DNA from: a virus
Strand: one strand, 5' to 3'
Length of the DNA: 64,000 nucleotides
Virus record (IMG/VR): IMGVR_UViG_3300034759_000344
Location: 32,187-96,186 of that record
Shown: positions 18,140-40,770 of the stretch, piece by piece
How the letters are laid out: each line of letters starts with the position of its first letter
Numbering within the stretch: position 1 is the stretch's first letter
Made by a program: the position numbers and the translations under genes
The notes under the pieces: model-generated
Database searches by the model: none
What the model was told of the DNA's origin: nothing
Seen by the model: only the letters and a program-made list of their open reading frames with translations

Positions 18140-18454
18140 TTAGCCTCCAATGATAACATTTGGAGAGCCAGTAGCTATTACTCCTACGTTGTTTTCACAG
18201 AAGCAAGAAAGTAAATCCCCTACTCTGGCTGCCCCCTTTCCATTGATAAGTACACTGCTGGATCCTTCAACTACGTTGCAGGGATGCGTGGTAACGCTTC
18301 CAATGTAGGCTGCAGGATGTCCGTTGATGAATACATTAGGGGAACAGTTAGTGGCAATTTCGTTTTGTAGTACCTGACAAGAGGGGTTTCCTTCTTCATC
18401 CTCAGTTACTTCCCAGCAGGTAGTTATGCTTCCTAAGTAGGCTCCCTGTGGCAT
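18140..18454 (-). CDS. PAAR-domain spike tip protein
   Basis: VFINGHPAAYIG, VLINGKGAARVGD, GSPNVIIGG. Confidence 0.9.
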   Translation of the reverse strand: MPQGAYLGSITTCWEVTEDEEGNPSCQVLQNEIATNCSPNVFINGHPAAYIGSVTTHPCNVVEGSSSVLINGKGAARVGDLLSCFCENNVGVIATGSPNVIIGG

Positions 18455-18462
18455 GGTTCACC

Positions 18463-18566
18463 TCAATACTTGAAGTAGTTAACTCCCCAGACTATCTTGT
18501 ATCCTTCGTCTACAGGACATACCCCTTCGGAGCAAGAGGAGCTTTCCTTTTTATTCTTGCTCTTCT
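18463..18566 (-). pseudogene. 3' fragment of a dead paralogue of the lipoprotein gene 19768-20496
   Basis: Encodes KSKNKKESSSCSEGVCPVDEGYKIVWGVNYFKY*, matching the intact C-terminus ...SKNKKESSSCSEGVCPVNNYLIWGVNYFKY*. Confidence 0.88.
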
Positions 18567-18797
18567 GTGAACTACCCCTCCCTAACCCCTCCGGGTTAGG
18601 GAGGGGCTTCGGTAGGGTTTCCTGCTTCATCGTAACCCCAACGGGTTAGCTCCACAGGCTTGACGTCCCGTGGTTCCCACGGTAGGGAAGCTTTATGCCG
18701 CTTCCAGAGCCAACGCTTTCTTCAGGATATTCCGGGCGGCATTTACATCCCGGTCGAGTATAAGGCCACAATAAGGGCAGTAATGAGTCCGCTCTTC
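18567..18797 (-). mobile_element. tnpB: IS605 remnant: tnpB 3' fragment (18693-18797) + omegaRNA + right end
   Basis: EERTHYCPYCGLILDRDVNAARNILKKALALEAA*; scaffold ends ...GGTAGTTCAC. Confidence 0.88.
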
Positions 18798-18813
18798 TTT
18801 AAATAATATTCAT

Positions 18814-18915
18814 ATAAGCCAGCACAGGAGACTCCATCTTCTTTAAGATGGATAGGAATGCGCTGATTCCTCCTTTCTAATATTAGTGTTTTTGCTCTTA
18901 TTGTCTTTATTAGAA
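18814..18915 (-). mobile_element. 3' end remnant of a second IscB-type element (followed by ATGA)
   Basis: Frame ...KTIRAKTLILERR; hairpin CCATCTTAAAGAAGATGG; 38 bp (18809-18846) repeated exactly at 19390-19427. Confidence 0.6.
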
Positions 18916-18918
18916 GAT

Positions 18919-19013
18919 CTACGTCCGGACTGGGCGGAAGTAACGCCTGTGGAGTGGAAGTTGTCCCACGATGAAGCAGGAAGCCTTGCATTTAAATGCG
19001 AGGAGGAAGTCAC
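18919..19013 (+). ncRNA. Orphan TnpB-type omegaRNA/IS605 right end
   Basis: CTACGTCCGGACTGGGCGGAAGTAACGCCTGTGGAG...GATGAAGCAGGAAGCC...GAGGAAGTCAC. Confidence 0.8.
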
Positions 19014-19375
19014 TTAATGAGCTTAGAGAGGATAACCGCTACTAAAATGGGGGAAAGGATGGAAGATAGGACGGCAACTACCTTATCAGCCGTCCAGCGG
19101 TTAAGATTTCTTCTTTCTCTAAGTTCATCTTGTAGAAATGTAATGTCCTTGTCTTGTATGCTGTTTTTGTTGCTTAAATTTATGACATTGTCATTTATCT
19201 TTTCGAGCTTGTCGTATATTTGCTTTAGATTTTGTTCTAAAATAGCCGAGTAGTTAGAAGCCTCTTTACACAACCTACTCACTTCCTTTTCAAGTGAAGC
19301 TACTCTGGTTTCTATAGAAAGCCTGGTTTCAATATAAGGACATACCTTACTGTCGTTACGTTCTTGATAGGTCAA
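19010..19375 (-). CDS. Coiled-coil protein with C-terminal TM (XhlA/holin-like)
   Basis: RVASLE coiled coil then a hydrophobic C-terminus; AAGGAGG SD. Confidence 0.6.
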   Translation of the reverse strand: MTYQERNDSKVCPYIETRLSIETRVASLEKEVSRLCKEASNYSAILEQNLKQIYDKLEKINDNVINLSNKNSIQDKDITFLQDELRERRNLNRWTADKVVAVLSSILSPILVAVILSKLIK

Positions 19376-19389
19376 GAGAGACCCTCCTT

Positions 19390-19427
19390 TTCATATAAGC
19401 CAGCACAGGAGACTCCATCTTCTTTAA
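19390..19427 (-). repeat. 38-bp exact copy of 18809-18846 (partial IscB-element end)
   Basis: TTCATATAAGCCAGCACAGGAGACTCCATCTTCTTTAA in both places. Confidence 0.85.
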
Positions 19428-19771
19428 AGATTTCTGTTTATAAGTCTGTAGTTTAGACTTTGAGTGTCAAAGTAGTTTTTGCACATATTTAAAAAGAGGT
19501 CAGTACTGATAGGGGAGCAGGAAAAAAGGTCTATAAATAATCGGTTTTTGTATTGACTCAATATTAGATGTGATTCAGCTATGATAGCAAATACTGTGAA
19601 GTGGTTTTTGTATTCTATAACATCTGGACCGAACACTACCGTTAACGGTAAGTCTTTTATGCATTTACAGACAAATTCCATCGCTTGACCTTTGGCTGCT
19701 GGTTCTTTGGTTAGCATATCTACCATGATTTGGGTTCCTACCAATACCGACCCCTCCTTTCTTATAATCAA
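19424..19771 (-). CDS. Pyruvoyl-dependent S-adenosylmethionine decarboxylase-like proenzyme (SpeD/SpeH fold)
   Basis: IIAESH self-cleavage motif and IDLFSC motif; probable TTG start ~19744 after AAGGAGG. Confidence 0.75.
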   Translation of the reverse strand: MIIRKEGSVLVGTQIMVDMLTKEPAAKGQAMEFVCKCIKDLPLTVVFGPDVIEYKNHFTVFAIIAESHLILSQYKNRLFIDLFSCSPISTDLFLNMCKNYFDTQSLNYRLINRNL

Positions 19772-20496
19772 TACTTGAAGTAGTTAACTCCCCATATTAA
19801 GTAGTTGTTTACAGGGCATACCCCTTCGGAGCAAGAAGAGCTTTCCTTTTTATTCTTGCTATTCTTGTTCTTCTTTAAGCAATACGCATCAGTGTAGTAG
19901 AGTACGTGTCCTCTTTCTACTAGATAGTTGATACGGTCCCATACTGGAACTTCAAGGGTAACTTTCATATCTGGATAGTACTTGCGCATGAACTCGTCAA
20001 AGCTATTGTGGCTTCCGAAGTAATACCATAAGTTCCATACGTAGACCTTACCATCTGGCCCGTAAGCGTAAGACAGAGCATGTCCTGGAGTTCCAATATC
20101 TTTCTTTGGATATATGTGCACATAGTAAGCTTCATACCCAAGTGCTTCTTTAGCAAGGTATGCAGTCATTAATGCCCAATCATCACAGTCTCCTTCCCAT
20201 TCTGGTTTTACTATAATACTCCCTTTATTTTTTGCATCTGGTATGCACTTCATTGGTAATTCTGCTGGTGTGAAATAATATCCATTGTATCCAGTTAGAA
20301 TTTTGTCCGAATTATATTCTGCATTTACACTTCTTAAATAGGTCTCGATCAGTTTAGGGGTAGTAATCCAATCGGGAAAGTCAAATAACTTTTGTGGTTC
20401 TGGGTCTATTGGTGTTGGTGCTATAAGGCACCCAGCTACGTTGAACAGCAAAGCAAAGATGACGATAATAGCTATCTTGCGCATTTGGACAATCAC
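19768..20496 (-). CDS. Lipoprotein with transglutaminase-like (Cys-His) domain
   Basis: Signal peptide with VAGC lipobox; GDCDDWA and GHA motifs. Confidence 0.7.
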   Translation of the reverse strand: MIVQMRKIAIIVIFALLFNVAGCLIAPTPIDPEPQKLFDFPDWITTPKLIETYLRSVNAEYNSDKILTGYNGYYFTPAELPMKCIPDAKNKGSIIVKPEWEGDCDDWALMTAYLAKEALGYEAYYVHIYPKKDIGTPGHALSYAYGPDGKVYVWNLWYYFGSHNSFDEFMRKYYPDMKVTLEVPVWDRINYLVERGHVLYYTDAYCLKKNKNSKNKKESSSCSEGVCPVNNYLIWGVNYFKY

Positions 20497-38380: not shown

Positions 38381-39712
38381 TTAGAGGCACGCGACTTCAG
38401 TCGTGTGAGATATAGAATAGTTTGTTTTTGTCTTGCTATATTGCCAACCATCGGCTGTTTGAATCAGCTTGCAGTACTTATAACTTATTCCCTGACATAC
38501 CCTTTTGCCATTTTTATCCTTAATGTCGAAAAATCCGCTTGCTCTCACTGCTACCATACCCATCCAGATACCAGCGTACTTTCCTCGTGGTACAATAGCT
38601 TTAACTATATCTCCAGTTTGGAAACCAAAGTGTTTCTTACATCTTTGCCTATGCCCACGTGGGAAACCAAACTTATCTGTATTACACATCTGCCTTGTTC
38701 CACGACCAACTGCACGCCATATTTGCACATAACTTTGTGTTATACGTATCTCGCTCGGTGTACTCTCACCAACACAACATGCATCGAAATAGTGCTCTTT
38801 GGGAAACCCCAGACGAATGCGATTTGCCTTTGTTAGCGCTCCTGTTCCGTATTCAACTGGTATTCCAAAACCGCTTAATGATTTGCGCAGATATGAGCGT
38901 ATCGAGTTCATGAATGCTGCTTGCTTGTATGTTTGTCTAGCCTGCTCTTGAACATGTGGGTATCCAAACTCAACAGCTGTTTTGTTGCCCTTCTTTTGGT
39001 TACACTCGTGGCAAGCAAGTGTTAGATTTGATACTCTATCTGTGCCACCTCTTGACCTTGGTACGATGTGGTCGATTTCCAGTGGTACGTCACTTCTACC
39101 ACAGTACGCACACTTTCGTCCCCACTTTTCCAAAAGATATTCCCTTACCTCGTAGCCAAAAAGCGTGCCTCGTTGGTATTCGATACCAGAAATCTCTGGA
39201 TTTTGCAACTTTTGAGTATCAAACTTTGCATCTTCGATGGATATTGCACTTATTGGCAACAGCTTTGTCAGTTTCCTTACCGCATTTATAAGCTGGTCTA
39301 CTCTTGCTTTGAGCGATGGTGGCAGCCACCCTTCAGGCCGTCTGCGATTTAGAAACCTAGGCTTTTGATATCTAGTCTTTCTGTTTCTTCTACTTCGACG
39401 AACAGCACGCCTGGCATCAAGTTTTTGCTTTATGTCTGTCTTGTGGTGTATCTCGCAAAGAAAAACTGTTTCTGCTACATCGCCGTCTTCTCGCAAAACT
39501 GCTACTCCTGTAGTTTTTGCGCCAGGGTCAAGTTTTAGCCTTAATGGTTGCAACTGACTTTGCTGTACTGTTCTGTCTTTTAGACGTATAGTGAACGGAT
39601 GCATTTTGTGGACTACTGCCCTGTCACGACTTAGTAACTGTCTTGCGCGCTTTTCTGAACACGGCATCAGAGGCTTTTTGTTTTTGTCCAACACAAACAC
39701 CATGTGTCTCAC
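38381..39712 (-). CDS. iscB: IscB RNA-guided endonuclease
   Basis: PLMP, RuvC-I LDPG, bridge helix RRAVRRSRRNRK, RuvC-II E, HNH DHIVPRSRGG..N...CHECN, RuvC-III HYFDA. Confidence 0.95.
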   Translation of the reverse strand: MRHMVFVLDKNKKPLMPCSEKRARQLLSRDRAVVHKMHPFTIRLKDRTVQQSQLQPLRLKLDPGAKTTGVAVLREDGDVAETVFLCEIHHKTDIKQKLDARRAVRRSRRNRKTRYQKPRFLNRRRPEGWLPPSLKARVDQLINAVRKLTKLLPISAISIEDAKFDTQKLQNPEISGIEYQRGTLFGYEVREYLLEKWGRKCAYCGRSDVPLEIDHIVPRSRGGTDRVSNLTLACHECNQKKGNKTAVEFGYPHVQEQARQTYKQAAFMNSIRSYLRKSLSGFGIPVEYGTGALTKANRIRLGFPKEHYFDACCVGESTPSEIRITQSYVQIWRAVGRGTRQMCNTDKFGFPRGHRQRCKKHFGFQTGDIVKAIVPRGKYAGIWMGMVAVRASGFFDIKDKNGKRVCQGISYKYCKLIQTADGWQYSKTKTNYSISHTTEVACL

Positions 39713-39719
39713 TCCTTGA

Positions 39720-39998
39720 AAATGCCCTTACGGGCCTTATGACGTGCTAAAGCGGACTCACTTTAGCACTCTCCTCGCCAATGTTGGTAGCCGGCGCGTG
39801 TGCTGGTCCGTTTCGCCCACACCCCAAAGGTTGTCTGCAACCAGCACTTCCAGGGTCCGGGACTGGAGAAGCATCCCGGAGTGGGTCTTGAGCCTACTAC
39901 CAACGTAGCACCTTCGTCCCCTTGTCCTTTGGGTCCGGTGCTTAGGCTGGTCAACCAGGGCTTTTACAAGCCCTCGACTTCAGTCGGGGGTAGTTGAC
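39720..39998 (-). ncRNA. IscB omegaRNA (HEARO-type) scaffold; guide is the flank 39999-40014
   Basis: GTCAAC...GTTGACCAGCCTAAG...CTACGTT...GGATGCTTCTCCAGTCC...AACATTGGCGAGGAGA. Confidence 0.85.
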
Positions 39999-40770
39999 TA
40001 TCTCCTTCCGACTGCTGTGTAGAGGAACCTTCTTCTTGAGCTTCTTCCTGCTTTTCTTGGAATCTAATATGCTTTTCAGAAAGCATAATGCCGTCGGGGT
40101 CTTCAAACCCTCCAGGAAGGGTATCCATAACTTTAACTGAAGCGGTAGACGGCAAACTGCCGAAAGCCGCTCCCAGTACTGAACCTAAGATCCCTCCTCC
40201 ACCGCTGAATCCGGCTAAAAGGTCCCCGATGGTGCTTCCTCCTAAAAGGTTTCCAAACATGCCTTTAAAAGGAGCGGGAAGCAGTTTATTTAAAGCACTT
40301 CCAATAAAGTACTTAACTACATCTTTCACTATCTGGTCCGGGCTGGTGTTTTTGAGGTACTGAACGATTCCCATGAAAGTTCCAAAGTATCCAGCAGCTT
40401 CAGAAAGCACGCTTTTTACATTGGAAGGAAAGAAAGAGGTAAAGAAGGCAATGCAGTTGTTCAGGTTGAGCTTTCCATTTTCAATTATGGAAGCTAAATT
40501 GCGGAAAAACGAAAGCCCTTTAGCTACGGAAGCTAAAGACCCTCCCGTTAATTCATTCAGCACTCCTAAAGCGCTGTCAAATTTGTTGAGCAGGTCCTGA
40601 AATCCGTTAATGGTTGGATTGTCGAATATCCCTTCCAAACCGTTGTATACGGTATCTATCTTGTTGTAGATGTCCAGAATTTTGTTTTTAGCTTCTTCAG
40701 GACCCAATTCTACAGCCAGCTGTAAAATGTCTTCAACGTCTATTTTGATGCGCTGTCTAGTTTCTGCCAT
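39964..40770 (-). CDS. Helical Gly-rich protein of the spike region; C-terminus altered by the IscB insertion
   Basis: 268 aa; last ~11 codons come from the element. Confidence 0.6.
   Translation of the reverse strand: MAETRQRIKIDVEDILQLAVELGPEEAKNKILDIYNKIDTVYNGLEGIFDNPTINGFQDLLNKFDSALGVLNELTGGSLASVAKGLSFFRNLASIIENGKLNLNNCIAFFTSFFPSNVKSVLSEAAGYFGTFMGIVQYLKNTSPDQIVKDVVKYFIGSALNKLLPAPFKGMFGNLLGGSTIGDLLAGFSGGGGILGSVLGAAFGSLPSTASVKVMDTLPGGFEDPDGIMLSEKHIRFQEKQEEAQEEGSSTQQSEGDSQLPPTEVEGL

Follow-up and report, generated by a model that had tools for sequence, protein, structure and literature searches.

The IMG/VR virus record IMGVR_UViG_3300034759_000344 contains a 5′-truncated insertion sequence (IS) of the IS605 type (18797..18567, minus strand) that comprises the last 34 tnpB codons and the whole omegaRNA. 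This remnant lies inside the 126-nt relic of a lipoprotein-gene tail, and the guide that it encodes resembles an intact lipoprotein gene located 1.3 kb upstream. The window analyzed here is the final 64 kb of this 96-kb record, whose CheckV completeness is ~63%; coordinates refer to the window. On balance, we favor the reading that the locus consists of IS200/IS605 debris, left in a dispensable part of a late operon of the phage, and is not a guide-and-escape system, and it is quite likely that the match between guide and gene arose by descent and that the RNA is a relic. The feature is of an ordinary kind, with one instructive junction at its left side. The elements on which the argument depends are the following:

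18463..18566, minus strand: 3′ piece of the dead lipoprotein tail, ending with the conserved C-terminus of the family and a stop codon
18546..18566, minus strand: guide-encoding flank, whose first 8 nt repeat 18798..18791
18567..18790, minus strand: omegaRNA scaffold and right end, 95% identical to the L136 and L137 copies described below, ending with GTTCAC at 18567
18693..18797, minus strand: tnpB remnant, the last 34 codons and the stop codon (Pfam PF07282, E 6e-8, profile positions 39-60 of 60)
18791..18813, minus strand: 5′ piece of the dead lipoprotein tail, composed of the reverse complement of TTCAT, TTTAA (18803..18799) and the first 8 protospacer nt (18798..18791)
18814..19013, plus strand: 200-bp mini IS200/IS605 without tnpB, its left end bearing a hairpin and its right end resembling an omegaRNA; TTCAT at 18809-18813
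19768..20496, minus strand: intact 242-aa lipoprotein gene (open reading frame, ORF), with a lipobox and a conserved C-terminal tail
19854..19879, minus strand: near-cognate site in the intact gene, formed by CTTAA (19879..19875) and a 21-nt protospacer-like stretch (19874..19854)

The initial annotation took the sequence that follows the omegaRNA to be the tail of a dead paralogue of the lipoprotein gene, and our alignments agree. The 104 nt at 18566..18463 copy the 3′ tail of the gene at 20496..19768 (59 nt at 93% and 32 nt at 94% identity), and the segment 18813..18791 is identical to 19889..19867 at 18 of 23 positions, ungapped and in frame (17/21 by another comparison). When the two dead pieces are joined minus one copy of an 8-mer, which within 18813..18791 is identical to the start of the guide, they form an open frame that ends like the conserved C-terminus of the homologues. 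Over 119 nt, the dead and the intact copies differ by 13-14 substitutions and two indels. The segment 18813..18791 was also considered as decayed tnpB, given that the parent tnpB likewise contains TAAAGAA, and this was rejected because the gene reading fits better. The relic may be what remains of an earlier tandem paralogue, or it may be the stub of an allele that has since been replaced. Two tandem homologues of the lipoprotein gene are present on the short metagenome contig Ga0172377_10190734 (L160:108-904).

The intact lipoprotein aligns over its full length with three homologues (57-68% identity), which are known as proteins only. It matched no Pfam or PHROG family, and no homologue was found in the candidate host genomes. 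Its conserved GDCDDWA...GHA pattern is presumably similar to that of transglutaminase-like cysteine peptidases. The guide resembles this gene because the guide is the relic itself, and the relic and the gene share ancestry; thus, the match is neither chance nor evidence of targeting.

A TnpB-type omegaRNA ending at 18567 on the minus strand had been proposed for this locus, and the PF07282 remnant, the homology to full elements and the divergence of the flanks all bear this out. Full elements with 95% identity over 227 nt were identified in Moorella thermoacetica DSM 21394 (L136) and in the metagenome-assembled genome (MAG) Bacillota MAG053 (L137), and a copy with 89% identity, accompanied by tnpA and tnpB, was identified in a Syntrophomonadaceae MAG (L138). 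The RNA is located at the tnpB 3′ end and runs to the right end of the transposon, and the stretch down to 18567 folds strongly (fold z-score -4.4). The flanks of four homologous copies diverge exactly after 18567, and all the copies end with GTTCAC; therefore, we placed the omegaRNA right end at 18567 and the guide start at 18566. Beyond this sharp boundary, the flanks, i.e., the guides, are unrelated between copies. The conserved omegaRNA core pattern derived from the locus matched more than 120 bacterial loci and 11 viral contigs. With respect to the MAG053 copy, the phage omegaRNA differs by ~1 nt, so its intactness reflects a recent transfer and is not evidence of selection.

Two further observations concern the extent of this RNA. 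In the Moorella-family genomes L175 and L176, the left end is joined straight to the omegaRNA start (CTACCGTGGG...); these natural mini derivatives of the Moorella-type IS605 mark the minimal retained right end, which in the phage copy begins near 18683. Additionally, the Rfam family RAGATH-18 gave sub-threshold matches at 18619-18658 (minus strand, E 0.026) and 18946-18982 (plus strand, E 2.8e-4), and may correspond to part of this omegaRNA class.

The identification of TTTAA as the transposon-associated motif (TAM) held when the element family was examined. Ten left ends were taken from the loci of the closest copies and from a search of 23 Moorella-family genomes; nine of them are flanked by TTTAA and one by ATTAA. 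These left ends share a hairpin-bearing start, and farther upstream their flanks are unrelated. In the reconstructed empty site of the phage locus, TTTAA abuts the first guide base, as the donor-joint model requires, so that the motif found at the left flank of the family also precedes the guide sequence. No empty site for the Moorella insertion was found among the 23 genomes of this family.

The left junction of the remnant departs from a simple insertion. The tnpB remnant had been described as following TTTAA; it does lie downstream of this motif, but 8 nt of protospacer (18798..18791), identical to the guide start, sit between the two, and consequently the 8-mer is found on both sides of the remnant. 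The tnpB homology starts at GAGC (18794), from which point the sequence is 100% identical to L136 for ~55 nt. In the parent tnpB of L136 and L137, TAAAGAA is followed by six other bases (TTATCC) and then by GAGC, and the same 7 and 4 nt are contiguous in the TAM-target sequence. The 7+4 nt common to tnpB and to the lipoprotein-gene target are read as microhomology. TnpB cuts 15-21 bp from the TAM, and the break is presumably repaired from an IS-bearing copy (PMC8612924).

We infer the following order of events, in which the abortive-repair origin of the junction has, in our judgment, about an even chance of being correct. A 126-nt relic of a second lipoprotein copy, whether paralogue or older allele, would have lain between ORF121 and the PAAR gene. 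A Moorella/Bacillota-type IS605 (tnpA-tnpB-omegaRNA, TAM TTTAA, right end TTCAC) would have inserted 3′ of the relic TTTAA, and the mini IS would have entered the opposite strand on the 3′ side of a TTCAT, whose end is 5 nt upstream of TTTAA. The relic, and not the intact gene, would have been invaded, since the intact gene does not contain the two insertion motifs that TnpA needs. A break may then have occurred in an element-free copy of the site, 8 nt or more beyond the TAM, in the region that TnpB cuts. With an IS-bearing genome as the template, repair would have copied inward from the right end and aborted inside tnpB, and the end would have re-annealed on the bulged 7+4-nt microhomology. 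The product would have the TAM and 8 nt of the target on its left side and the complete target on its right side.

Simple decay of a complete insertion could also be proposed for this junction, i.e., a TAM-to-tnpB deletion via TAA microhomology and a later 6-nt deletion, with no empty target involved. The arrangement of TAAAGAA, 6 nt and GAGC in the parent lets two such deletions formally yield the observed sequence, and deletions do accumulate in pseudogenes. Nevertheless, this explanation requires an 8-nt coincidence with the guide start and the removal of six nt without a flanking repeat, and the remainder of the remnant is undecayed across the 55 nt that are identical to L136. We therefore regard it as unlikely.

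Several observations weigh against reading the locus as debris shaped by abortive repair. Close phage relatives from which the ancestral gene order could be read were not found, and the relic need not predate the insertions: when IMG/VR and JGI metagenomes were scanned with single proteins and with profiles, only relatives with 30-54% identity and no synteny were recovered, a PAAR-based scan gave distant loci only, and blastn against GenBank phages gave no match. The abortive-repair reading depends on one junction, and no second junction of TTAA and guide prefix was found among the 142 omegaRNA cores of the fetched loci, self-matches near contig starts having been discarded. The part of the phage genome that the record lacks could hold a cognate tnpB. 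Moreover, the remnant is sense-oriented in the late operon and is probably transcribed. Finally, the record has another truncated tnpB whose break point in the gene is at most ~15 nt away from this one, and such similar break points could hint at selection that keeps whole omegaRNAs.

A further question is whether the guide is in use. Transcription of the late operon could include the omegaRNA, and a host TnpB, or an unseen phage TnpB, could take it up in trans; the complex would then cut or home into rival phages with an uninterrupted relic-type allele, the resident site being spared as interrupted. In agreement with this proposal, the scaffold is complete and in the sense direction, near-identical full elements are found in candidate hosts (Moorella-like Bacillota scaffolds, 95-99% identical), and the phage has at least three gene-less omegaRNA modules. 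On the other hand, no cognate TnpB was found in the 96-kb record, whose only full TnpB (L164, 405 aa) shares 26% identity with the cognate type and is paired with another scaffold, and no dedicated promoter was found for the omegaRNA remnant. Empty-site DNA was not found in IMG/VR with either the exact 20-nt pattern or a degenerate tail pattern, and a search of 5.8 billion proteins with the dead-tail protein matched only the intact gene of the window. The near-identity to the bacterial copies also leaves too little time for selection to show. Thus, the omegaRNA is probably without a partner nuclease in this phage, and a working guide of this kind is quite improbable, with a host TnpB acting in trans as a possible candidate. 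The earlier proposal that the guide now targets related phages carrying the sensitive allele finds no support, as neither a cognate TnpB in the 96-kb record nor a sensitive allele in the collections searched was recovered.

The initial annotation also proposed that a cleavage-resistant allele had replaced a doubly invaded one. In that case, a functional allele carrying both insertions would have been replaced, via recombination, by an allele selected as uncuttable. The intact copy does have CTTAA in place of TTTAA and ATGC in place of ATGA, so that it differs at position -5 of the TAM and at two TTCAT positions, as well as inside the protospacer. The described in-frame insertion of 9 bp, 5 nt into the protospacer, was confirmed, and it is a tandem duplication (19869..19861). 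Both putative TAMs are thus changed, as had been noted, but the second motif serves the guide of another element: TTCAT is the TAM of the mini IS, whose guide is unrelated to the lipoprotein gene, so the ATGC change is irrelevant to the guide at 18566. In an ungapped comparison of the guide with the intact site, mismatches fall at positions 7, 16, 17 and 21, i.e., a single one within the first 15 nt.

For SisTnpB7, which is the one characterized TnpB that shares the TAM TTTAA and the right-end motif TTCAC, any base at -5 is cleaved indistinguishably, single mismatches are tolerated beside a strong or cognate TAM, and targets with a weak TAM are highly mismatch-sensitive (PMC11043419). The last of these properties would favor escape, and the first two argue against it, as does the ATTAA that flanks one natural relative of the element. 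The differences near the site are all non-synonymous and are located in a lysine-rich linker of variable length among the homologues; given the 13-14 substitutions and two indels over 119 nt, the TAM and seed changes are not exceptional. The same differences explain equally well why TnpA could insert only in the relic. The available evidence on the resistance of the intact allele appears to point the other way or to be neutral, the claim of replacement by a resistant allele is left unsupported, and we consider escape by replacement very unlikely. The still broader idea that the gene-less omegaRNA modules are borrowed weapons of the phage, loaded by the IS605 TnpB of the host against co-infecting phages whose relic-type alleles would be cut or converted while the resident intact paralogue is spared, strikes us as the most doubtful of all.

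The element on the plus strand explains the other end seen at the locus, which had been assigned to an IscB element next to ATGA. This assignment was rejected: no HEARO match was obtained in 18400-19100, even at E up to 1, HEARO matches occur only at 39763-39998 and HEARO/IscB as a whole only at 38381-39998, and the ends of the resident IscB element differ. The sequence belongs instead to the plus-strand mini IS that has no tnpB, of which it forms the left end, and its TTCAT flank is the reverse complement of the ATGA motif. Over its entire length, the mini IS can be aligned with four copies of ~205 bp, with unrelated flanks, in two Aquificales MAGs. Related left ends are flanked by TTCAT or TTTAT in this phage and by TTTAC or TTTGC in the MAGs. 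It has both ends, a subterminal hairpin and no ORF, and it occurs in several copies with unrelated flanks beside a short motif. Between its left end and that of the full tnpB element of the phage itself, the similarity is 88%. Its would-be guide begins at 19014 and runs antisense to the last part of ORF121, whose stop codon (19012..19010) is provided by the right end of the mini IS. A second, isolated piece of the same left end was also localized:

19390..19427, plus strand: solo left-end piece of the mini IS, TTCAT and the first 33 nt, 100% identical to 18809-18846 (38-nt exact repeat)

This piece abuts the stop codon of ORF115, 581 bp from the mini IS, and could be the left-side equivalent of the truncated remnant on the right side. 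All three IS insertions at the locus sit in non-coding or relic DNA, a placement that fits tolerance of insertions in dispensable sequence.

We take the sequence at 18814-19013 to be akin to the PATE-like mini elements or the stand-alone omegaRNAs of OMEGA systems. It resembles these elements in having both ends and no ORF, in the independent copies found elsewhere and in the absence of a target duplication; it differs from them in being located in a phage late operon, where it supplies the ORF121 stop, and in the solo left-end piece 581 bp away.

The truncated element can be compared with its closest relatives in the same manner. It shares with the L136, L137 and L138 elements the nucleotide identity of 89-95% over the last 227 nt, the right-end boundary and the TTTAA/ATTAA left flank; those elements have retained tnpB and the left end, together with tnpA in the case of L138, whereas the phage copy begins 34 codons before the stop. 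As in SisTnpB7 of Sulfolobus islandicus (PMC11043419) and ISDra2 (PMC8612924), the scaffold overlaps the tnpB 3′ end and the right end, the guide is the flanking DNA, and the TAM lies directly against the guide once the empty site is reconstructed. The likeness to SisTnpB7, compared by motifs only, extends to an identical TAM TTTAA and right-end motif TTCAC. Unlike these systems, the phage copy has no left end, no tnpA, ~90% of tnpB missing and no cognate nuclease in cis. Intronless homing and marker exclusion, carried out by phage homing endonucleases such as SegF (reviewed in PMC13565253), correspond to the concept behind the initial annotation, in which a nuclease spares its own allele, owing to sequence differences, and cuts that of a rival; at this locus, neither a nuclease partner nor a rival allele was found.

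For the junction itself, a comparison can be drawn with P elements and Ac/Ds, in which interrupted gap repair makes internally or terminally deleted transposons. The likeness lies in the truncated copy, the microhomology junction and the repair synthesis that halts inside the element; the difference is that the break proposed here would come from an RNA-guided nuclease that cuts distal to its TAM, which predicts the 8-nt target duplication. The left junction would thus be the footprint expected from incomplete repair of a TnpB-cut empty site. If junctions of this type recur elsewhere, they would provide natural evidence for RNA-guided restorative homing and for the origin of tnpB-less omegaRNA remnants. 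Additionally, the paralogous site pair offers a natural substrate set for the TAM and mismatch discrimination of a bacterial TTTAA-type TnpB, with TTTAA and a perfect target on one side and CTTAA with one mismatch in 15 nt, or with the 9-nt insertion, on the other. In broader terms, the locus indicates a very recent exchange of an IS605 element between the phage and Moorella-like bacteria, and it shows that the phage tolerates IS debris within the relic of a gene. The host of this uncultivated phage is probably a thermophilic or anaerobic Bacillota.

The genes surrounding the locus are on the minus strand and belong to a late region of the tail/lysis type, which includes a tail-fibre-like gene, the lipoprotein gene (20496..19768), ORF115, ORF121, the PAAR gene and a glucosaminidase. 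The neighbors of the relic and of the mini IS are the following:

19424..19771, minus strand: ORF115, AdoMet-decarboxylase-like (Pfam PF02675, E 1.9e-7)
19010..19375, minus strand: ORF121, a coiled-coil protein with a C-terminal membrane helix (ORF; weak match to a PHROG annotated as hemolysin)
18140..18454, minus strand: PAAR-domain gene, directly downstream of the relic (Pfam PF05488, E 1.9e-18), given as context only

A word-indexed search for ORF121 homologues returned only ORF121 itself.

Other IS-derived loci were also noted in the record. The only complete tnpB is located ~10 kb before the window start (L164:1414-2631, minus strand); it encodes the full 405-aa TnpB, has its own left end, 88% like that of the mini IS, with a TTTAT flank, and its right end finishes with GGTAGTTCAC. 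A third scar, ~12.8 kb before the window start (L166:1300-1610, minus strand), is a fusion between the first ~50 nt of a HEARO RNA and a remnant that comprises the tnpB C-terminus and an omegaRNA. It is nested just inside another left end with a TTCAT flank, and its tnpB break falls within ~15 nt of that at 18794. Within the window, an apparently intact IscB element (38381-39998, minus strand) comprises a 443-aa ORF with RRXRR and HNH domains preceded by a HEARO RNA (118 bits), and the gene upstream of it (40770..39964) terminates only after reading through ~11 codons of HEARO sequence.

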